IMG/VR virus record: IMGVR_UViG_3300002026_000124
Span: 8,176-72,175 of that record
Direction: 5' to 3' (one strand)
Length of the DNA: 64,000 nucleotides
Origin: a virus
Taxonomy: Duplodnaviria > Caudoviricetes
Shown here: piece after piece, positions 15,932 to 62,123 of the stretch
Layout: every line of letters starts with the position of its first letter
Numbering within the stretch: position 1 is the first letter of the stretch
The notes under the pieces: model-generated
Database searches by the model: none
The model's input: only the letters and a program-made list of their open reading frames with translations
Told to the model about the DNA's origin: nothing
Made by a program: the position numbers and the translations under genes

Positions 15932-16195
15932 TAAAGTTTAATTTAAAATAAATACTATGAGATTCATATAAATCTAAATAATTTTAACATTTAAAGTATT
16001 TATAAGTATGAAAGTCATTGCTTAATTAGGAATTAAGTTACGTCTGTAAAGTCAGAAATGGTTTTTGAAATTTTATCGCCAGTTAGTGGTTAAGTAAAAT
16101 TTAGACATAACAAAATGATTATTATGAATGCACTCCTTAAAAAAGAGTGCATTTTTTTATTAAATATAAATATTTTTATTTTTTTTCGAAAAAAG

Positions 16196-16226
16196 TTTGT
16201 ATTTATGATTTTAAGTCGTACATTTG
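16196..16226 (+). promoter_or_regulatory. Bacteroidota-type sigma70 promoter of tRNA operon 1
   Basis: TTTG (16196-99), 19-nt spacer, TACATTTG (16219-26). Confidence 0.75.
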
Positions 16227-16255: not shown

Positions 16256-16330
16256 ATGAAAAATTTAGTAAACATACAACCCCAGCCGCAACAACATCCA
16301 AAAGATGGTGAATGGGAAAAGTTTGCTTAA
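16256..16330 (+). CDS. attenuator leader peptide 1 (Pro/Gln/His)
   Basis: MKNLVNIQPQPQQHPKDGEWEKFA*; QPQPQQHP core matches the downstream Pro/His/Gln tRNAs. Confidence 0.85.
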   Translation: MKNLVNIQPQPQQHPKDGEWEKFA

Positions 16331-16474: not shown

Positions 16475-16568
16475 CAGGAAGTGAGCGAGAGGTTGAAGCT
16501 ACTGGTCTTGGAAACCAGTCACGGCACAAAGGCGTTGTCGTGCGTGGGTTCGAACCCCACCTTCCTGA
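16475..16568 (+). tRNA. tRNA(TGG) with long variable arm
   Basis: CAGGAAG/CTTCCTG acceptor, CTGGT-CTTGGAA-ACCAG, about 25-nt variable arm. Confidence 0.8.
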
Positions 16569-16638
16569 CATGTGGACTGGTTAGAATTTACATACAAGGT
16601 CGTCCGTAATTGGAAATGATGCGTAGGAAATTCAACAT

Positions 16639-17125: not shown

Positions 17126-17242
17126 CAAAAAGTTTTTGGAAATCTTGTATTTATTATTATCTTTGCATAAATATTGCTGGTATAATAACACGTTGTTATA
17201 GAATAGTACACGATGCATACTATCGCCAACATTTTTTAATAT

Positions 17243-19150: not shown

Positions 19151-19190
19151 AATAAAAAAATAAAAATATTTTAATTTTTTTTCGAAAAAG

Positions 19191-19221
19191 TTTGTATTTA
19201 TCAAAAATGTCTCTATCTTTG
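19191..19221 (+). promoter_or_regulatory. Bacteroidota-type promoter of tRNA operon 2
   Basis: TTTG (19191-94), 19-nt spacer, TATCTTTG (19214-21). Confidence 0.75.
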
Positions 19222-19253
19222 CAGAGAATTTAATTAGTGAAAACAATAAAGTT

Positions 19254-19367
19254 ATGAAAAATTTACTCAACATATTATCAGTAGTCCTAGTGGATGCGCT
19301 CTTATGGGCAGCGGATGAGGATATGGTATATCGTGTCGGGTCGAAAGATACTGGAGTAGGTTATTAA
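19254..19367 (+). CDS. attenuator leader peptide 2 (Val/Leu/Asp/Ala/Trp/Glu/Met)
   Basis: MKNLLNILSVVLVDALLWAADEDMVYRVGSKDTGVGY*. Confidence 0.85.
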   Translation: MKNLLNILSVVLVDALLWAADEDMVYRVGSKDTGVGY

Positions 19368-19387
19368 TAACTGAAACAATAAAAACG

Positions 19388-19417
19388 AAACCCGACCCGA
19401 AAGAGTCGGGTTTTTTT
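19388..19417 (+). terminator. attenuator terminator 2
   Basis: AAACCCGAC-CCGAAAGA-GTCGGGTTT plus T-run; competing strand GTCGGGTCG at 19335-19343. Confidence 0.85.
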
Positions 19418-19443
19418 ATTGTTCTTTGACATGTTGGAAATTT

Positions 19444-19514
19444 GGTCTATTAGGGTATGGGTATCCTTGGTGGTTGTCGCCCACCAGAATCGAGTTCGAG
19501 TCTCGAATAGACCG
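19444..19514 (+). tRNA. tRNA-Asp(GTC)
   Basis: GGTGG-TTGTCGC-CCACC, G73. Confidence 0.85.
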
Positions 19515-19664
19515 CTAAACATTTGATTGTCGGGTTATTACTCAGAGGGTTTTAACTTACGAAGATAGACGTGTTAGTATAATAAGTACACTTGCCTTAA
19601 ATAAGTAGGAAGTTGTAACATGAAAAGGTTATCACACGTAACAAGAACGTCAAATGTTTTTAAC

Positions 19665-19734
19665 GGGGTCGTAGTTTAATGGTTAGAATACCGCACTGTC
19701 TATGCGGGGAAGGGGTTCGAATCCCACGGCTTCG
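19665..19734 (+). tRNA. tRNA-Asp(GTC), weak T-stem
   Basis: CCGCA-CTGTCTA-TGCGG; T-stem has only about 3 bp. Confidence 0.6.
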
Positions 19735-19867
19735 GCAAAATTTAAATTTATGAAAAAGAATAAGTCGTCCGAAAATACCGGACAGTTAAAATCAAAAGTT
19801 TGCTTTAAAGTAATTTCTAAAGAGGAATTAAAGAAAAACAGAAGTAATGCATATGATTACTTAATTT

Positions 19868-19992
19868 AATCTACCGATAATCTACCGTTATAACAGTAAA
19901 AAGTGCAATATGTTGCACAATCTACCGATAATCTACCGATAATCTACCGATAATTACCGTTATAACAGTAAAAAGTGCAATATGGTGCACAA
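19868..19992. repeat. AATCTACCGAT tandem repeats and duplicated palindromic unit
   Basis: Several AATCTACCGAT copies; two copies of TACCGTTATAACAGTAAAAAGTGCAATATG(T/G)TGCACA. Confidence 0.85.
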
Positions 19993-19996
19993 AAAC

Positions 19997-20080
19997 GCAG
20001 CATTATACAAGCGGTCAAAGTAGCAAGTCCTTCAAACTTGCATCTTCGGATTTCGAGGGGTTCGAATCCCCCATGCTGTA
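19997..20080 (+). tRNA. tRNA(TTC, Glu) with long variable arm and C33
   Basis: CAAGT-CCTTCAA-ACTTG; variable hairpin ATC-TTCG-GAT. Confidence 0.75.
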
Positions 20081-20131
20081 CCTTGACTTTTCTGTACCAT
20101 AGGACTATTTATAATAAAATATTATACTCCT

Positions 20132-20776
20132 ATGGCACGAAAAGAAAAAAAATATCACTTTATTTATAAAACAATAAACATCATAAATAATAAGTTTTAT
20201 ATTGGTATGCATTCAACAGACAATTTGAATGATGGATATGTTGGTAGCGGAACAAGACTTTGGTATTCAATAAATAAATATGGTAGGGAAAATCATAGAT
20301 TGGAAATACTTGAATTTCATGAAACACGAATTATATTAAAAGAACGTGAAAAGAATTTAGTAAATGAGGATTTATTGAAAAATCCTATGTGCATGAACAT
20401 AAAGATTGGTGGTGAAGGTGGATTAAATGGTCTTTCACAAGAATCAATTAAAAAAATACGTAAGGGTGCATCTGATTTCATGAAAATGAAGTGGAATGAA
20501 CCAGAATTTAGAAATATGTGTTCTCAACGTTCTATAATTAAAATGAAAGAAAATCATAGACTTGGTAAAATGAGATATGATACGTTTATTGGTAAATCTC
20601 ATAGTGAAGAAACAAGAGAACTTATGAAAGTAGTTCATAAGGGAATGGGTATTGGTTCTACAAATTCTCAATTCGGTACTTGTTGGATAACTAAGTGTGG
20701 CGTAAATAAAAAAATTAATAATAATGATTTGTCCTTATATATTAGTGATGGTTGGTGTAAGGGTAGAGTCATATAA
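20132..20776 (+). CDS. GIY-YIG (Seg-like) homing endonuclease
   Basis: FIYKTINIINNKFYIGMHS...GYVGSG; NUMOD3-like GKSHSEETR. Confidence 0.88.
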   Translation: MARKEKKYHFIYKTINIINNKFYIGMHSTDNLNDGYVGSGTRLWYSINKYGRENHRLEILEFHETRIILKEREKNLVNEDLLKNPMCMNIKIGGEGGLNGLSQESIKKIRKGASDFMKMKWNEPEFRNMCSQRSIIKMKENHRLGKMRYDTFIGKSHSEETRELMKVVHKGMGIGSTNSQFGTCWITKCGVNKKINNNDLSLYISDGWCKGRVI

Positions 20777-20777
20777 T

Positions 20778-20849
20778 GGTCCGTTCGTCTAACGGTTAGG
20801 ACGGCAGGTTTTCATCCTGTTAATAGGGTTTCGATTACCCTACGGACTA
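20778..20849 (+). tRNA. tRNA-Glu(TTC)
   Basis: GCAGG-TTTTCAT-CCTGT. Confidence 0.9.
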
Positions 20850-20856
20850 CTAAAAT

Positions 20857-20929
20857 TGCGTGTTGTGGAAGTTGGCTCTCCGGACAGAATCATAATCTGT
20901 AGACACTGGTTCAAATCCAGTACACGCAA
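20857..20929 (+). tRNA. tRNA(CAT), Met or Ile2
   Basis: ACAGA-ATCATAA-TCTGT. Confidence 0.8.
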
Positions 20930-20936
20930 CAATATT

Positions 20937-21011
20937 GCTCTCTTAACTCAGTTGGTTCAGAGTGTCACGCTTACAACGTGAAGGTCGGGGGTTCGACTCC
21001 CTCAGAGAGCA
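20937..21011 (+). tRNA. tRNA-Val(TAC)
   Basis: TCACG-CTTACAA-CGTGA. Confidence 0.92.
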
Positions 21012-21208
21012 CAAATGCCGTAAGTCTGGATAAAATTCCTTAAAGGGAAACTGGAGTAGCGAATAACTTAAAGCGAAGTGGTTTCGTGATAGACGGTTGT
21101 GATGAAAAGTTAGTCACTCATTAGTCGCAGGGTAGAATGGTGTAAGAATGGGAGCACGTTTGCGATAAGCAAAAAGACGAAAGGTTCGAATCCGAAATAC
21201 CCCTTAAT

Positions 21209-21283
21209 AGTCCCTTAGTTTAGTTGGTAAAAACGTCTGGCTTACATCCAGAAGATGCACTGGTTCGAATCCAGTAGGGACTA
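21209..21283 (+). tRNA. tRNA-Val(TAC)
   Basis: TCTGG-CTTACAT-CCAGA. Confidence 0.9.
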
Positions 21284-21478
21284 CTTTTGACATACGGTTT
21301 AGGACCGTTATAGCTTCGGCTATAAAGGGGGTGGGATGTTCGCTACTGACCACCCCTTTACAAAAAACGTTTAATTTTGCATAGTTATTCTTATTAATTT
21401 AAACTATCTGTGCAAATTTTATCGGTTGTAGAGGCGATAAGCATAGTTTATCGGTTGTAGAGACGATAAAATTTAAAT

Positions 21479-21560
21479 ACGGGTATAGTCCAACGGTAGG
21501 ACGCTCTCTGTCCAAGGGGAGAAATAGGCTGCAGTCAGGGTTCAATTCCCCTTACCCGTG
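21479..21560 (+). tRNA. atypical tRNA, ambiguous anticodon (GTC or TCC), long variable arm
   Basis: ACGGGTA/TACCCGT acceptor, G73, irregular anticodon loop, variable hairpin GGCT-GC-AGTC. Confidence 0.6.
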
Positions 21561-21620
21561 CAAAAAATAATTATTATCCTTGTATTATATATTAACTGCA
21601 TATACTAAGATAATAAATAT

Positions 21621-21702
21621 CTCGCAGTGTCGTAATTGGTAGCCGGGACAGTCTAAGAAGCTGTTGCCTTCGGGTGTGTGGGTTCGAGTCCCACTTGCGA
21701 GA
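21621..21702 (+). tRNA. tRNA-Leu(AAG)
   Basis: ACAGT-CTAAGAA-GCTGT, class II arm, A73. Confidence 0.88.
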
Positions 21703-21709
21703 CGAATAT

Positions 21710-21765
21710 GGGGATGTGATGAAATTGGCGATACATGCCAGACTTAGAATCTGGCGCTAATAAAC
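21710..21765 (+). pseudogene. truncated tRNA-Leu(TAG), 5' part
   Basis: Acceptor 5' strand, D arm and CCAGA-CTTAGAA-TCTGG present; no T arm before the next tRNA. Confidence 0.65.
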
Positions 21766-21777
21766 TGGCTTCACTTT

Positions 21778-21854
21778 GGGGCAGTAGTGACAATTGGCTA
21801 ACACGACAGATTTGCACTCTGTAAATGGGGTATCATACATCCCCTGCTCCACCA
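21778..21854 (+). tRNA. tRNA-Ala(TGC), aberrant T-loop
   Basis: G3:U70, A73, CCA; T-loop reads ATCATAC. Confidence 0.7.
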
Positions 21855-21923
21855 CAACATTGGTTTCGAAAACCAACGTCTCCACTTTTCCAGAAAACCA
21901 AGTATTTATAATAAAGAAATATT

Positions 21924-22742
21924 GTGAATACTTGGAAAACTAATAGAAAAACAATTTTAATTAATTGTGAAAATTGTGGAAATGAATTCAAAAAAACATT
22001 ATCTGAATATAATCGTTCAGAAAAATTAAATAAAAAACATTTTTGTTCATTAAAATGTAATAATGAATCTAAAAAGATTAAACTAAAATTCTGTTTACAA
22101 TGTAATGAAGAGTTTATTCCCGATAAAAATAAAACTAAGTTCTGTTCACATTCTTGTAACGCAAAATATAATAATAAAAATAGAAAGGGTATTAAATACA
22201 ATATAAGTGAAAATGGTTTAATTGGATTAAGGGAATCGTATAAAAATAATTTCGGATATGATATTATAAAATTTAGAAATAACTATTATCAATCACAGAA
22301 TTATTGTAAAGAATGTAATGAACCTATTCCATATGAAAAAAAGAATCATGTTTTTTGTAATCGGGATTGTAAAAGAACATATGATAGAAAGAATTTAACT
22401 GAATATCAAAAATACTATAAAGATTGTCAATTTAAATTTGGTTTATCAGACTATCCAAATGAATTTGATTTCGAATTGATTAAAACACATGGTTGGTATC
22501 AACCAAAAAATCATGGCAATAACTTAGGTGGAATTAGTAGAGACCATATGATTTCAGTAAAATATGGATATGAAAATAATATTAGTTCTGAGATAATTAG
22601 TCATCCTGCCAATTGTCAATTGATGATTCATAATGAGAATATTAGTAAATATAAGAATTGTTCAATAACATTAGAAGAACTAATGATTAAAATTGATAAT
22701 TGGAATGAAAAATATTCACAAATAACAATGGGTTTAACATAG
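21924..22742 (+). CDS. HNH homing endonuclease with Zn-finger repeats
   Basis: CxxC...FCSxxC repeats; C-terminal SRDHMIS...HPANCQLMIHNEN. Confidence 0.8.
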   Translation: MNTWKTNRKTILINCENCGNEFKKTLSEYNRSEKLNKKHFCSLKCNNESKKIKLKFCLQCNEEFIPDKNKTKFCSHSCNAKYNNKNRKGIKYNISENGLIGLRESYKNNFGYDIIKFRNNYYQSQNYCKECNEPIPYEKKNHVFCNRDCKRTYDRKNLTEYQKYYKDCQFKFGLSDYPNEFDFELIKTHGWYQPKNHGNNLGGISRDHMISVKYGYENNISSEIISHPANCQLMIHNENISKYKNCSITLEELMIKIDNWNEKYSQITMGLT

Positions 22743-22805
22743 TGGCGAGTGTTAACCGTAAGTCCTGCGTGGCTGGTAACGGTGGTTCGATTCCATCAGC
22801 CTGTT
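22728..22805 (+). pseudogene. degenerate tRNA-like remnant
   Basis: GGTGG-TTCGATT-CCATC T arm, weak acceptor, no clear anticodon arm; overlaps HNH stop. Confidence 0.4.
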
Positions 22806-22811
22806 GTTTAT

Positions 22812-22884
22812 GCCCTGTTGACGTAATTGGCAACCGTATTGGTCTTAAAAGCCAAGTTTCTCAGTTCGAATCTGAGGCGGGGTA
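22812..22884 (+). tRNA. tRNA-Leu(TAA) lacking the long variable arm
   Basis: TTGGT-CTTAAAA-GCCAA; 4-nt variable loop GTTT; A73. Confidence 0.8.
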
Positions 22885-22920
22885 CTATTTAAAAATTTTA
22901 TAGTATTTATGATAAAAACT

Positions 22921-23241
22921 ATGGATACAAAACAAAAATTATTCGAGATGATGGGTAAACTAAATCATGATTTTAAACAATCAAAAATTGTTGAAGGGTT
23001 TGAAAATAGTAATAATCCAATTAATTCCGAACAATTAACCCAAAAGGATGTGGCATCTAAAATTAGAAATCGAGGATATCAATATCACACAGATACTACA
23101 CTTAAAACAATTGGTGTAAATGCTATTATAGATGAAATGAAACCCAGAGATTTACAATATTTTTTGGATTTAGGGTTTGTACGTGAACCATTAGGTGATT
23201 TAGGTTCAGAATATGATTCATTAAATTATCATTACATATAA
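22921..23241 (+). CDS. hypothetical protein with LFEMM leader
   Basis: MDTKQKLFEMMGKLNHDF; late motif 22903-22910. Confidence 0.6.
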   Translation: MDTKQKLFEMMGKLNHDFKQSKIVEGFENSNNPINSEQLTQKDVASKIRNRGYQYHTDTTLKTIGVNAIIDEMKPRDLQYFLDLGFVREPLGDLGSEYDSLNYHYI

Positions 23242-23245
23242 ATCT

Positions 23246-23761
23246 ATGGACTACCATTTGAGTTTATTTATCATGTCGATTCTTGTATTTGTTTCCTATG
23301 TCGGAGCAGTATGGATTAAATTCGGTGTACAGCCATCAATAAGTGCAAGTTATGATTGTTGGAAAGGCTTATGGCAATCACTTTTCGTATTATTCTGTTG
23401 GGGATTTGCATTTCCTGCAATGGTTATTGGTATAGAAGTAACGCCATTAATGTTTTTTGCTTGTGCTGGAATTATGTTTGTAGGTGCCGCATATGAAATA
23501 AAAATTAAATGGGTATATGAATATCATATGGTATTTGCAATATCCGGAATTATATTTAGCCAGTTAGCAATTTACTTTGGTTATGATTTACTATGGGTTA
23601 ACATAGTATCGGTTGTATTATCAGTATTAATATTATTAGGTAAATTGTATCTTGGTTTAAAGAATCACTTCTGGTGGATAGAGTTAGTTGCCTTTGCTGC
23701 AATAGTTTATGCAATGGGAACTAAGATTATTCCTTTCTTATATCTAACAACACTTAATTAA
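23246..23761 (+). CDS. multi-pass membrane protein
   Basis: About five hydrophobic helices. Confidence 0.7.
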   Translation: MDYHLSLFIMSILVFVSYVGAVWIKFGVQPSISASYDCWKGLWQSLFVLFCWGFAFPAMVIGIEVTPLMFFACAGIMFVGAAYEIKIKWVYEYHMVFAISGIIFSQLAIYFGYDLLWVNIVSVVLSVLILLGKLYLGLKNHFWWIELVAFAAIVYAMGTKIIPFLYLTTLN

Positions 23762-23764
23762 AAT

Positions 23765-23847
23765 TCGTTCGTGGTAGAGTGGTCGATTACATTGGTCTCC
23801 AAAACCAATAGAGAAATCTCACGTGGGTTCGAATCCTACCGAACGAG
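23765..23847 (+). tRNA. tRNA-Trp(CCA) with long variable arm
   Basis: TTGGT-CTCCAAA-ACCAA; variable hairpin GAG-AAAT-CTC; G73. Confidence 0.85.
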
Positions 23848-24247
23848 CATAAATAATGGTAAAAATTGCGGGTACGTACACAAGTCAAAGTTCTTTCCAA
23901 CGGAACACCGACTACTACTGAGGGTAGAGATATTCCCAAGAGCAATATCAGTTAGTGTATGACCATTATTTTATAATTTTTTATAAAATTTCCAAAAATC
24001 TTTAAATTTTTATTATTTTTTATTTTTCAGATAGTATTTATCTGAAAAGTATAACTATGGCAATATCAAAACAAGACAATGCTTGTAGAACGTTCATTAT
24101 AAATGAAAAGGAGTACAATGTCTATAAAGATGGGAAGCACACATTTGTTAAATCTGAGGATAAAATTGTATTTAATAGTACAAAATCTGATATAACTGTG
24201 TCTCAATGGTTAAAAAAAATAAGAAATACTAAATAATAAGAATTTAA

Positions 24248-25936
24248 ATGGCAATATTAGGAACAGATGTATCGGTAAGTGTAGGTGGTAATATTCGTTG
24301 GACGGGTGGTGCAACAACAAACTATACAGTACTTGAATTACATAGATTTTTACAAGATTTGGCTGACGATGCAGCTGCAAGTGGAAATGATTTAATTGAT
24401 ATTACAAGTAGTACACCATCTGAAAGGTCAACAGATAATATCATCACATTATTGGGAAGTTACAATATCGATGATACGATGGCGAAGCATCTTTATGATG
24501 GTTCTATTACGCAGAGTGGGGGTAGTACAGTATATTCTGGTTTAAAGGTGTTGGGTGCTGTAAATAACAGTGCAACTCAATTACAAGTTATTCAGAATAA
24601 CGGTTTATATGATGGTGCAGCACCTTTCTGGGGAACTCAGGCAACTGGTGGTTTTAATGGTAGTGCAGCTTCCGGGGTTTTGATGCGATGTTTAATTAAA
24701 TCGAGATTTGGAAATAATGATATTGATGGTAAGCGTATTAGGGTACAGGCAAGACATTGGGGTGACACATATGATTTCTTTAACGTTACTTTGGGTCAGG
24801 GTGAAGCCGTAGCTGCTATTGGTACAACACCTGATGCACAAAATACTACATCTAAGCCGACAGTTACTGCATATACTCATGTTGCGAACACCGAAGGTTA
24901 TCAAACAATTAATTTAAATAATGGTAATGGTGCACAACCTTATTATTCTAAATGGACATATGGTGTAAATACTTCTGGTGATGGACTTAAAGGTGTTTGG
25001 GAATATATTAAAGATTTAACTGGTACTGGTACAGCAAAAACTTTACATGGTATCAACGGTGAATTGTTTTTAGGTGTTACACATCAATATGCGTATAGTG
25101 GAGAAACTGGAACTGCATTTATTGAAGACGATGTTATTACTTGGGGTGCGGGTGCTACTGCAGGGACTGGTTTATTACTTGCATTAAATGATGCCGGAAC
25201 GACTGGTACTGTATGGATGCAATTACTAACTGGTGTTGCACCAACAAATGCGATGACAGTCAATAATGAAGCTGCTAATGGTAGTCATAAACTTAATGGG
25301 AATACTACTACAAGAACAATTCCTAAAGTATTTTTAGGTTCATATACAGGTTCACTAATTGGTGCATTTGGTATTGGTGTACTGGCTTCAAATTTACTTT
25401 CGACTGATAGTATTCAAGATTTACTTGGTGTTACTCAAATTCCACCAAACAACGTTACATTTACTGTATCTGGATTGGTAAGTGGACAGGACATGGTGTT
25501 GGTAGGACCGAAAGCTGGTGGTGATACATTTGACTTTGCACAATTAACATTAAATACAACATTAGCGGCTGGCTCAACAACAGTTGTTGTAACTACTGCA
25601 ATTCCTTCTGATACACCTTCAAGTGGAACTATTAGGGTACTTGATAATAATGGTGTTTATATTCGTGCACCATATACATCATGGGCAGGAAGTACATTTA
25701 ATTTAACCGGTACTTTTGGTAGTGCTGCAACTGCACCTAAAAATGTTTGGATATCATATATTGATAGACTTGCTGACGATACTACAGAAGCATTTACATC
25801 AATCTATAGTGCACCAAGGTCACTTTGGATTAGGGTTCGTGATGGTGGTGTGACTCCTATTAAAACATATGAATCACAAGGTACATTAGGTTCTGCTGGT
25901 GGTAGTGCAGTTGCAAGTAGAATTACAGACCTTTAA
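24248..25936 (+). CDS. putative virion structural protein
   Basis: 562 aa, Gly/Thr-rich; late motif 24034-24041. Confidence 0.6.
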   Translation: MAILGTDVSVSVGGNIRWTGGATTNYTVLELHRFLQDLADDAAASGNDLIDITSSTPSERSTDNIITLLGSYNIDDTMAKHLYDGSITQSGGSTVYSGLKVLGAVNNSATQLQVIQNNGLYDGAAPFWGTQATGGFNGSAASGVLMRCLIKSRFGNNDIDGKRIRVQARHWGDTYDFFNVTLGQGEAVAAIGTTPDAQNTTSKPTVTAYTHVANTEGYQTINLNNGNGAQPYYSKWTYGVNTSGDGLKGVWEYIKDLTGTGTAKTLHGINGELFLGVTHQYAYSGETGTAFIEDDVITWGAGATAGTGLLLALNDAGTTGTVWMQLLTGVAPTNAMTVNNEAANGSHKLNGNTTTRTIPKVFLGSYTGSLIGAFGIGVLASNLLSTDSIQDLLGVTQIPPNNVTFTVSGLVSGQDMVLVGPKAGGDTFDFAQLTLNTTLAAGSTTVVVTTAIPSDTPSSGTIRVLDNNGVYIRAPYTSWAGSTFNLTGTFGSAATAPKNVWISYIDRLADDTTEAFTSIYSAPRSLWIRVRDGGVTPIKTYESQGTLGSAGGSAVASRITDL

Positions 25937-33173: not shown

Positions 33174-33455
33174 GGGGGCGACTTGGATTTGATTAGATGT
33201 CAGATTGGTAAAGTAAGCAAGTCTTAGTTGAATCAGACTAAGTAAAAAAGAGTGTTGAACTCGCAATGGTAGCGTAGGGAATAAACAAACCAACAAAAAC
33301 TTCTGGTGAAGTAAGTTATGAATAAGTGAGTAACGAATCCCGAAGAGAAACTAAAATGTAAACTATTCTATTTTGCTTGTTTAGAAAAACGAGATAAACT
33401 TGTAGAAAACCTATTAATCACATTTAAGACGAGGGTTCGAATCCCTCCGCTTCCA
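33174..33455 (+). ncRNA. ssrA: tmRNA
   Basis: 5' GGGGGCGACTTGGATTTGA; 3' GAGGG-TTCGAAT-CCCTC-CGCTTCC-A; G3:U70; internal tag ORF ending GEVSYE*. Confidence 0.88.
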
Positions 33456-33481
33456 CTTAATACATTAAAAATCAATTAGTT

Positions 33482-34557: not shown

Positions 34558-34646
34558 GGCGGGGTGGTGGAATTGGTAGACACGCTGGACTTAAAATCCA
34601 GTGGGCAGTAATGCCCGTGTGGGTTCGAGTCCCATCCCCGCTACCA
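34558..34646 (+). tRNA. tRNA-Leu(TAA)
   Basis: CTGGA-CTTAAAA-TCCAG, class II arm, CCA. Confidence 0.93.
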
Positions 34647-34661
34647 AAAATTAGAAAAATT

Positions 34662-34934
34662 ATGGCGAAATTAAAAGTGCCTGTGGATGTACTGTATGAA
34701 AAATGCAGGAAAGTCATTAATCATGAAATCCGAATTGAATCTCGTGAAGAAGCAAGAGAAATTATGCTACTTACTACAGAGAAGCATCGTAATGATTTCG
34801 TCAAATATCACCAACAGGACATGGGTAATATTTGTTGCATGGTTCTTGATGCAGCAAAGCAAGACTTGGTGAAAGAAGGAAAATTAGTTCTGAAACCCGA
34901 AGATAGTTTCGGACACCCATTAACATTTGAATAA
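34662..34934 (+). CDS. hypothetical protein
   Basis: Start reassigned to MAKLKVP, downstream of the tRNA. Confidence 0.55.
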   Translation: MAKLKVPVDVLYEKCRKVINHEIRIESREEAREIMLLTTEKHRNDFVKYHQQDMGNICCMVLDAAKQDLVKEGKLVLKPEDSFGHPLTFE

Positions 34935-35164
34935 TATGGCAATAATTTATTAAAAAAACTGTAAAGAAAAGACTATGATAGATATTAAAGCGGGTGAAGG
35001 TTTATGCGAATATATTCGAAGGGCAAATGGTATGAAAAAAGAAATATCGCAATTAAGTGACATACCAAAAATTGTAAATAGTGATAAAATTACAATTACT
35101 GGTGGTGCTGAATTTATTGGGAAATTTTTGAATGCGTTACCGGAAGAATATAAATAATTTTAAA

Positions 35165-35247
35165 GTCCTTGTGATGAAATTGGTAGCACGTGATAGTTTC
35201 AAAAACTATTGCCTTCGGGCGTGAGGGTTCGAGTCCCTCCAAGGACA
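35165..35247 (+). tRNA. tRNA-Leu(CAA)
   Basis: ATAGT-TTCAAAA-ACTAT, class II arm. Confidence 0.9.
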
Positions 35248-35323
35248 CTAATTTAATTAAAATTTAAAACGATGAAAGAAAAATTTAAAGTCTTGTAGGT
35301 TGCTCTAATGCGACTACAAGAAA

Positions 35324-35644
35324 ATGAGAGTAAAAACTATTTCAAAGACCACTACTAATCGTGGTGTATTCAATCGTGCGTATAAAGAACTTCTTGAACG
35401 CAAAGGTAGAATCCATTGTTCACGTTGCAAATACCATAAAGGTGAAAACTATGAAGGTAAATGGTATGGAGAATATATTTATGACGATATGAATACCTGT
35501 CGTGGTAAATCAGGAACTCATACAAAGTTACCAAATTGGAAACTTGTTTCAAAACAACCAAAACAATGGATGAAAAAACCCATCAAATTTGTTGATAAAC
35601 AATATGGTGGGTACAGGTACATTTACGTTGACATCAAATGGTGA
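35324..35644 (+). CDS. basic hypothetical protein
   Basis: CSRC motif, 106 aa. Confidence 0.55.
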   Translation: MRVKTISKTTTNRGVFNRAYKELLERKGRIHCSRCKYHKGENYEGKWYGEYIYDDMNTCRGKSGTHTKLPNWKLVSKQPKQWMKKPIKFVDKQYGGYRYIYVDIKW

Positions 35645-35655
35645 TGTCAACACAT

Positions 35656-35727
35656 TGCGAGTTAGCTTAGTGGTAAAGCATCACCTTCATAAAGTGGAGA
35701 CCGAGGGTTCGAGTCCCTCACTCGCAA
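35656..35727 (+). tRNA. tRNA(CAT), Met or Ile2
   Basis: Loop TTCATAA, canonical T arm. Confidence 0.82.
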
Positions 35728-35728
35728 C

Positions 35729-43607: not shown

Positions 43608-43700
43608 ATGAAAATTTTTGGCACATATTATTACGGTAAAAAATCTTATAAGAAACATCTTACGAGAATCGGGAATGTTATGTCCAAAAAGCAAAAATAA
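43608..43700 (+). CDS. attenuator leader peptide 3 (Tyr/Lys)
   Basis: MKIFGTYYYGKKSYKKHLTRIGNVMSKKQK*. Confidence 0.85.
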   Translation: MKIFGTYYYGKKSYKKHLTRIGNVMSKKQK

Positions 43701-54014: not shown

Positions 54015-54143
54015 ATGAAATCACAAGTATCCAATATTAACATTTCGTCAACGATTAATAGTCGTAATGGAGAAAGTATATTCTGTTCAAGTTTTACAGG
54101 CAGAAATATAGCGGATACGGGTTCAGGATTTTTATCGTGTTGA
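54015..54143 (+). CDS. attenuator leader peptide 4 (Ser/Asn/Ile/Thr/Phe/Cys/Gly/Arg)
   Basis: MKSQVSNINISSTINSRNGESIFCSSFTGRNIADTGSGFLSC*. Confidence 0.85.
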   Translation: MKSQVSNINISSTINSRNGESIFCSSFTGRNIADTGSGFLSC

Positions 54144-62045: not shown

Positions 62046-62116
62046 GCGTCTGTCGTTTAATGGATAGGACAGTCCCGTTCAAGGGATGTGTGGGGGTTCG
62101 AATCCCTCCGGATGCA
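62046..62116 (+). tRNA. tRNA with 6-nt anticodon loop (TTC or TCA)
   Basis: GTCCC-GTTCAA-GGGAT; Glu-like D-stem; canonical T arm. Confidence 0.65.
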
Positions 62117-62123
62117 CAATATT

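Follow-up and report, generated by a model that had tools for sequence, protein, structure and literature searches.

A short open reading frame (ORF) and the signals that surround it, which together occupy positions 19173–19439 of a 64 000-nucleotide stretch of phage DNA, very probably constitute a ribosome-mediated (leader-peptide) transcription attenuator that gates the phage tRNA operon behind it, with feedback on the phage's tRNA supply. The stretch (the window) corresponds to bases 8176–72175 of the 72-kb IMG/VR virus record IMGVR_UViG_3300002026_000124, and all coordinates given here are positions in the window. The attenuator reading, which had been put forward in a first-pass annotation of the sequence, is supported by both sequence and comparative evidence, including the set of codons used in the leader, the correspondence between its Val codons and the Val tRNAs downstream, covariation in the antiterminator and the predicted folds of the nascent RNA. 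The system is widespread: ~70 distinct leaders are found in IMG/VR contigs of up to ~400 kb. To our knowledge, leader-peptide attenuation has been known for amino-acid-making enzymes and for one synthetase. Here, the same logic would be applied to tRNA genes, making the sensed molecule the product itself and the leader a direct homeostat for decoding capacity. Such control would explain the sorting of the tRNA genes of these large phages into amino-acid groups, each leader serving as a sequence-level read-out of which tRNAs the phage treats as one supply problem. It would also connect the tRNA arrays of phages, in a testable way, with the depletion of tRNAs in the host, an open question in phage–host conflict, and, being modular, the system would naturally supply codon-specific switches read by the ribosome for use in Bacteroidota.

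Organization and predicted folding of the leader unit

The unit lies on the + strand and is arranged in the order promoter, leader ORF, antiterminator strand, terminator, boxA and tRNA genes. At its upstream end is an A/T-rich element with a T-run and CGAAAAAG (19173–19190), of which a near-identical copy precedes leader 1 (16185–16206); the element is retained just 5′ of the promoter in a five-way alignment of homologues. A pattern scan identified a promoter of the Bacteroidota sigma-A type at 19191–19221, composed of TTTG (−33), 19 nt and TATCTTTG (−7), the consensus used being what we take to be that of Bacteroides promoters. TAnnTTTG is present upstream of 65 of the 78 distinct leader units, compared with 6% of random 110-nt windows. 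The leader ORF (19254–19367) begins 32 nt further on, behind an A-rich 5′ untranslated region devoid of a Shine–Dalgarno sequence. It comprises 37 codons, and its residues 10–25 (sensor codons, 19281–19328) are drawn exclusively from Val, Leu, Asp, Ala, Trp, Glu and Met, just as the first-pass annotation had described; the synonymous codons reported there, GTA, GTC and GTG for Val and TTA, CTC and CTA for Leu, are likewise present.

Codons 28–30 make up the antiterminator 5′ strand, GTCGGGTCG (19335–19343), which is complementary to 19389–19400 and is in effect a copy of the terminator 3′ arm. The perfect complementarity claimed previously between TCGGGTCG (19336–19343) and CGACCCGA (19393–19400) was confirmed, and the latter sits in the 5′ arm and loop of a hairpin at 19387–19414 that is followed by a T-run. 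This hairpin, with a 10-bp stem and an 8-nt loop, forms a strong intrinsic terminator (19387–19418). The boxA-like element GTTCTTTGACATGTTGGAA (19421–19439) lies between the terminator and the first tRNA gene.

Across all units, exact complements to the terminator 5′ arm have a mean maximum length of 7.35 nt in the 3′ region of the ORF and of 3.8 nt in a control region, and the paired sequences differ from family to family (GAATGGGG/CCCCATTC, GTCGGGT/ACCCGAC, ACCTTGGG/CCCAAGGT, TGGTCGAGA/TCTCGACCA and others). In an alignment of 30 sequences from the family of the window leader, 93% of the antiterminator cells are paired, against 23–48% in slid controls, and double changes occur at four pairs (16 cells), a level reached by none of 500 shuffles. 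The outermost antiterminator pair, which was fixed by no search pattern, is found as C–G, U–A, A–U and G–C. The terminator of the same 30 homologues shows 94% paired cells and six covarying pairs.

The equilibrium fold of the full leader always displays the terminator and is uninformative for a kinetic switch; the nascent RNA was therefore folded as far as the terminator loop, and a stalled ribosome was represented by masking the mRNA through the 12th nt past its A-site codon. In these in silico folds of the window leader, the antiterminator is part of the minimum free-energy (MFE) structure for stalls at codons 1–22, is partial for codons 23–29 and no longer forms from codon 30 onwards. The three remaining leaders of the window behave alike, the productive stall range ending where the cognate run ends, and in 29 of the 30 homologues the antiterminator helix forms for stalls at every core codon. 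In 23 of the 30, productive stalling extends exactly as far as the last acidic sensor codon, and the four-codon spacer that follows thus looks like a ruler for the leading edge of the ribosome. The predicted energies of the two structures are close (antiterminator, −16.8 kcal/mol; terminator, −16.5 kcal/mol). Since the antiterminator is already part of the MFE structure of the ribosome-free nascent RNA and there is no 1:2 anti-antiterminator, read-through is the predicted default in the absence of translation. In most homologues the ORF ends in GTC GGG TAA with the stop codon overlapping the antiterminator strand, so that a terminating ribosome would sit on the strand.

The spacer between the leader stop codon and the terminator contains ACCTCCTTTCT in L036, L052, L081, L113, L184 and ~15 other homologues, but not in the window copy. 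This motif is identical in sense to the 3′ tail of 16S rRNA, the anti-Shine–Dalgarno sequence (compare L240, 1565–1577), and no convincing pairing partner for it was found. Pairing of the anti-Shine–Dalgarno-like spacer motif CCTCCTTTCT with the acidic codons was considered by eye and gave no convincing helix.

The boxA 19-mer at 19421–19439 is conserved in the homologues and also stands after the leader terminators of other unit types, and a boxA-like motif follows 45 of the 78 units. The identical 19-mer is present in >120 bacterial genome stretches, mostly of Bacteroidota, with Pontibacter, Chryseobacterium and Odoribacter among those that carry it in rRNA operons. In all four Bacteroidota genomes checked it lies in the 16S–23S interval, ~40–180 nt upstream of the 23S rRNA, and in three of the four spacer tRNAs intervene between 16S and the 19-mer. 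It agrees at 10 of 13 positions with what we take to be the E. coli rrn boxA consensus. From these matches we infer that a polymerase that has passed the attenuator may be converted to an rRNA-type, termination-resistant form for its passage through the 4.4-kb, largely untranslated array. The same 19-mer was also observed in unrelated viral contigs (L085, L091 and others), upstream of a structured-looking region without tRNAs.

Correspondence between leader codons and downstream tRNAs

In the window leader, 22 of 36 residues belong to the amino-acid set of the array, compared with a background of 35% calculated from the protein composition of the window (p = 1e-3), and a 16-residue run within the set has a probability of ~1e-6. 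The anticodons of the array comprise Asp(gtc) (three genes), Glu(ttc) (two), Val(tac) (two), Leu(aag), Leu(taa), Trp(cca), Ala(tgc) and CAT. Three sister units in the window show a comparable match. Leader 1 (16256–16330) contains the run QPQPQQHP and precedes Pro/His/Gln tRNAs; the leader at 43608–43700 contains YYYGKKSYKK and precedes Lys/Tyr tRNAs; and the leader at 54015–54143 is rich in Ser, Asn, Ile, Thr, Phe, Cys and Gly and is followed by tRNAs for the same amino acids. All four units share a TTTG-N19-TAnnTTTG promoter, a short ORF that starts with MK and holds, near its end, a complement of the terminator 5′ arm, then the terminator and the tRNA genes. When the four leaders are tabulated against the four clusters, enrichment appears on the diagonal only (p = 2e-4, 1e-3, 1e-4 and 2e-6). 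No leader was found before the Leu/Leu/Met group (34558–35728) or the Thr/Arg group (60010 onward).

Relatives were collected from IMG/VR by three pattern scans, based on the shared leader start, the boxA element and the antiterminator/terminator skeleton, none of which constrains the sensor codons; together they yielded ~200 loci on contigs of up to 408 kb. An automatic search, defining a unit as a terminator located at most 110 nt upstream of a tRNA gene with a short ORF ending just before it, returned 107 units, including 67 distinct leaders with at least three tRNAs downstream. In these 67 the cognate fraction is 0.49, where 0.27 is expected; when leaders and tRNA sets were re-paired 20000 times, 0.49 was never reached. 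Individual leaders follow the content of their clusters. Arg codons are seen in a Pro/His/Gln-type leader precisely where the cluster has been joined by Arg tRNAs (L114); a leader rich in Asn, Leu, Thr, Ala, Pro, Gly, Asp and Arg has those tRNAs downstream (L154), as does a Thr/Ala/Pro/Gln/Gly/Arg leader (L164); and an Asn/Leu/Glu/Thr/Asp/Arg leader precedes Asp/Leu/Arg/Glu/Met/Asn/Thr tRNAs (L200 and L203). 'All-in-one' leaders, in which most amino acids occur about once, stand before near-complete tRNA arrays (L082, L103, L105, L124, L134 and L207). In L105, Leu, Ala, Gly, Pro and Asp are missing from the leader and likewise from the listed tRNAs.

The family of the window leader comprises 33 distinct homologues, with a core whose last residues are LLW, a short stretch of Ala/Asp/Val/Glu and two acidic residues, followed by four spacer codons and Val-Gly. 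The first-pass annotation had named as fatal to its proposal a family that kept hydrophobicity and lost the codon set, and the outcome was the opposite: 513 of 540 core residues (95%) fall within {D, E, M, V, L, A, W}. Core columns exchange Val, Ala, Asp and Glu freely, with second-position changes tolerated within GNN codons, and codons differ at position 2 (0.28) almost as often as at position 3 (0.37); it is thus membership of the codon set, rather than peptide sequence, that is conserved. An ORF in the same frame is present in 30 of 30 family members, even though in-frame indels have occurred. In the leader core, the presence of Val codons coincides without exception with that of a Val tRNA downstream (16/0/0/3, Fisher p = 0.001), the cores without Val (L114, L206 and L215) being exactly the three whose clusters lack a Val tRNA. 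Leu codons of several boxes (TTA, TTG, CTC, CTA and sometimes CTG) occupy conserved columns and are mirrored by the downstream Leu isoacceptors (taa, caa, aag/gag, tag and cag), one-to-one in L106.

Units 1 and 2 (the latter being the unit at 19173–19439) have the promoter-upstream element and the first seven codons in common. The same first seven codons (M-K-N-L-x-N-I; 16256–16276 and 19254–19274 in the window) and upstream element recur in L058, L059, L069 and L211 despite quite different sensor sets, which suggests that the units are paralogous cassettes whose sensor codons and terminator arms were changed to re-tune them. Within cluster 1, another full promoter motif (17135–17165) precedes the last Gln tRNA.

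Proposed mechanism, alternatives and known systems

Taking the anatomy of the unit together with its conservation, covariation and predicted folding, we infer that the leader is translated, that ribosomes stall in it and cause read-through, that Nus factors use the boxA and that a shortage of particular aminoacyl-tRNAs is the physiological trigger. Transcription would start at the promoter (19191–19221), and a ribosome would follow close behind the polymerase, translating the 37-codon leader. With plentiful aminoacyl-tRNAs for Val, Leu, Asp, Ala, Trp, Glu and perhaps Met, the ribosome would reach the end of the ORF and cover or sterically block 19335–19343; the terminator hairpin (19387–19414) would then fold and transcription would end before the tRNA genes. 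If any one of them is short, the ribosome would stall within codons 10–25, leaving 19335–19343 free to pair with the terminator 5′ arm as the antiterminator. The polymerase would read through, acquire the boxA (19421–19439) for processive antitermination of the rRNA type and transcribe the 4.4-kb array of exactly those tRNAs. The expected outcome is a negative feedback loop on tRNA supply in which a shortage for any of the seven amino acids would suffice (OR logic), in a three-segment design whose default without translation would be read-through. It is also possible, but rather doubtful, that the four attenuators provide tRNA replacement on demand, each watching one codon group and being switched on when the host pool for that group collapses, so that they would act as codon-resolved sensors of attack on the translation apparatus, with the leader/tRNA modules as swappable cassettes. 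Such a collapse could be brought about by host anticodon nucleases, by other tRNA-targeting defences or by the phage's own host shut-off.

Several observations weigh against attenuation by a translating ribosome. The weakest point of the model concerns the window copy, in which the ORF continues for eight codons past the antiterminator strand and stops 22 nt beyond it, an extension of 6–8 codons seen in four of the 30 homologues with the window copy included; a ribosome at this stop codon would not be on the strand, and blocking must therefore be steric or transient. The window leader folds contain no 1:2 anti-antiterminator or pause hairpin, and no upstream segment is complementary to 19335–19343, which leaves the synchrony of ribosome and polymerase without an explanation. 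The leader has the single TGG and the single internal ATG reported at first; the suggested match of the Met codon to a CAT tRNA did not hold, as no association between the two was seen across the homologues. The leader codon CTA has no matching Leu(tag) tRNA in the window. Conserved N-terminal codons (Lys, Asn and Ile) are non-cognate to the cluster, yet stalls at them are predicted to give read-through. If amino acids rather than tRNAs were short, extra tRNA would not help. The homologues are related, and the p-values are accordingly descriptive, the large binomial ones overstating independence. Finally, the lack of a close cultured phage means that there is no cultured model of these leader units.

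Three other explanations were weighed, one being that the product of the ORF is a small hydrophobic (membrane) peptide that has its own function, the hairpin being an ordinary terminator and the tRNAs being expressed independently. The N-terminal half of the peptide is hydrophobic and precedes Trp and acidic residues, an arrangement often encountered in membrane-anchor peptides, the sequence is fairly well conserved (for example in the LLW and ED motifs) and the attenuated transcript would encode nothing but the leader peptide. However, hydrophobicity along a helix-length segment is not conserved in the 33 homologues: Asp and Glu replace Val and Ala inside the supposed helix, and Ile and Phe together occupy five of 388 hydrophobic core positions, compared with ~35% expected from the AT-rich genome composition, which bears out the doubt about a membrane peptide voiced in the first-pass annotation. 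Moreover, Val codons vanish exactly where Val tRNAs are missing, the 3′ end of the ORF covaries with the terminator arm, the sister units encode non-hydrophobic peptides matched to their own tRNAs behind the same promoter, N-terminus and terminator design, and there is no second strict promoter motif between terminator and tRNAs from which the latter could be expressed. We regard a membrane peptide as highly improbable.

A sensor of global translation capacity, or of the stage of phage takeover, would terminate transcription whenever a ribosome finishes the ORF, the amino-acid match then reflecting shared ancestry or mutational bias towards GNN codons. The predicted default of read-through without ribosomes, the predicted efficacy of stalls at non-cognate N-terminal codons and the fact that Val, Ala, Asp and Glu have GNN codons one mutation apart are all in keeping with this idea. 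It does not account for four leaders of one genome matching four different tRNA sets, for divergent phages re-matching the leader to their tRNA content, for Leu codons of three or four boxes mirroring the Leu isoacceptors or for a cognate run that ends at the productive-stall boundary, and mutational bias leaves Trp, Leu, Pro/His/Gln and Lys/Tyr unexplained; such a sensor appears improbable. An untranslated RNA switch, in which uncharged tRNA or another ligand is sensed directly in the manner of a T-box or riboswitch, or a protein is bound, and the ORF is incidental, would share its output stage with the unit, as alternative terminators and antiterminators also operate in T-boxes and riboswitches; Bacteroidota mRNAs furthermore lack Shine–Dalgarno sequences, so that translation cannot be read from the sequence. 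No T-box or riboswitch in Rfam was matched even at E = 10, no conserved structured aptamer is apparent, the frame survives in-frame indels in all 30 homologues with the ATG and stop codon fixed relative to the antiterminator, and the sensor region varies while staying within the amino-acid set, which is a constraint at the coding level. A switch of this type is extremely improbable.

Attenuation by a leader peptide has well known counterparts. Leader-peptide attenuators control trp, his, leu, thr, ilv and pheA in Enterobacteria, and have been predicted by comparative genomics in some Bacteroidetes/Chlorobi. With these the unit shares a promoter-proximal short ORF with a regulatory codon run and mutually exclusive antiterminator and terminator, with ribosome position as the proposed decider; sensing of several amino acids is also found in the thr (Thr/Ile) and ilv (Ile/Val/Leu) leaders. 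It differs from them in being phage-borne, in having tRNA genes as its target, in addressing seven amino acids with codon sampling at the isoacceptor level, in having three segments rather than four without a 1:2 anti-antiterminator or pause hairpin, in a stop codon that usually overlaps the antiterminator strand and in the boxA that follows. The best sub-threshold Rfam match was to RF00513 (Trp_leader; 24.7 bits against a cut-off of 41), a resemblance of architecture only and not family membership; RF00506 (Thr_leader) scored 18.7 bits against a cut-off of 55. In E. coli, the pheM leader of the pheST operon attenuates the genes for Phe-tRNA synthetase via cognate codons. There, as proposed here, ribosome-mediated attenuation adjusts the supply of decoding machinery to how well cognate codons are read; pheM, however, is cellular, senses one amino acid and targets a synthetase, whereas here the regulated product would be the sensed molecule. 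T-boxes need no ribosome to bind uncharged tRNA, which they do by means of a specifier codon and the T-box sequence, and are typical of Firmicutes, not Bacteroidota. They likewise couple tRNA status to a choice between terminator and antiterminator, as proposed for the unit, which gave no match to the Rfam T-box model at the gathering score or at E values of up to 10. The boxA of rRNA operons resembles that of the unit in its identical 19-mer and its place before a long untranslated operon of structured RNA; in the unit, it follows a regulated terminator and belongs to a phage tRNA operon, and binding of NusB/NusE is putative. Large phages (T4, T5, jumbo and 'huge' phages) carry clustered tRNA genes that are presumed to supplement or replace host tRNAs. 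As in those arrays, the clustered genes here are interspersed with homing-endonuclease genes, but they are grouped by amino acid, and every group has a matched sensor of its own. Full-text searches of a collection with few subscription journals gave no paper on tRNA genes, in phage or cell, under the control of a leader peptide.

The tRNA array and its genomic setting

The array (19442–23848, + strand) extends over 4.4 kb and contains 12 tRNA genes identified with ARAGORN and Rfam: two tRNA-Asp genes (19444–19515, called by ARAGORN and below the Rfam gathering score, and 19664–19736), a Glu-like tRNA of 86 nt (19997–20082, likewise called by ARAGORN and below the gathering score), tRNA-Glu (20778–20850), the CAT tRNA (20857–20930), two tRNA-Val genes (20937–21012 and 21209–21284), a further tRNA-Asp (21479–21561), tRNA-Leu(aag) (21621–21703), tRNA-Ala(tgc) (21778–21854; 40.4 bits with Rfam and detected by ARAGORN only at a relaxed threshold), tRNA-Leu(taa) (22812–22885) and tRNA-Trp (23765–23848). 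A GIY-YIG homing-endonuclease gene (20132–20776) and an HNH homing-endonuclease gene (21924–22742) are inserted between tRNA genes, and two small ORFs lie at 22909–23761; relatives have the same tRNA order without the GIY-YIG and HNH inserts. No further terminator-like site occurs on the + strand from 19414 to 25000 and no strict promoter motif between 19191 and 45318, in keeping with transcription of the array as one long unit. The region 19867–19992 within the array holds direct repeats, namely a unit of 11-nt period (TAATCTACCGA) in four copies and a 38-nt unit, present twice, with a small hairpin at its end, and adjoins, on the upstream side, the doubtful 86-nt 'Glu' tRNA and the GIY-YIG gene. 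In relatives (L106 and L052) the Leu/Leu/Met group comes immediately after Trp; its place in the window is 34558–35728, ~10.7 kb further on, separated from Trp by a block of protein-coding genes and a transfer-messenger RNA (tmRNA) gene. This displacement suggests that the operon was split by insertion or rearrangement.

The window contains 46–47 tRNA genes and one tmRNA according to ARAGORN and Rfam, together with tail-fibre, ribonucleotide-reductase and homing-endonuclease genes; the completeness of the record is rated by CheckV at ~21%. Pfam searches left most of the neighbouring proteins without matches. No cultured relative of the region or of a neighbouring 562-residue protein was found among 50,697 GenBank phage records by megablast, blastn or tblastn, and a VWA protein gave matches of only ~33% identity there, in phages of Shewanella, Pectobacterium, Yersinia, Erwinia and Klebsiella. 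The promoter motifs and the boxA element, being of the Bacteroidota type, point to a Bacteroidota host. Unusual tRNA calls in the window include a 95-nt Pro tRNA at 16475–16569, the 86-nt 'Glu' tRNA at 19997–20082, whose position 33 is C and whose extra arm is long, and a tRNA-like gene at 62046–62117 for which ARAGORN reported a two-base anticodon. The phage-encoded tmRNA is located at 33174–33458 (Rfam, 69.5 bits), and its presence together with codon-sensing leaders suggests a broad investment of the phage in ribosome stalling and rescue.

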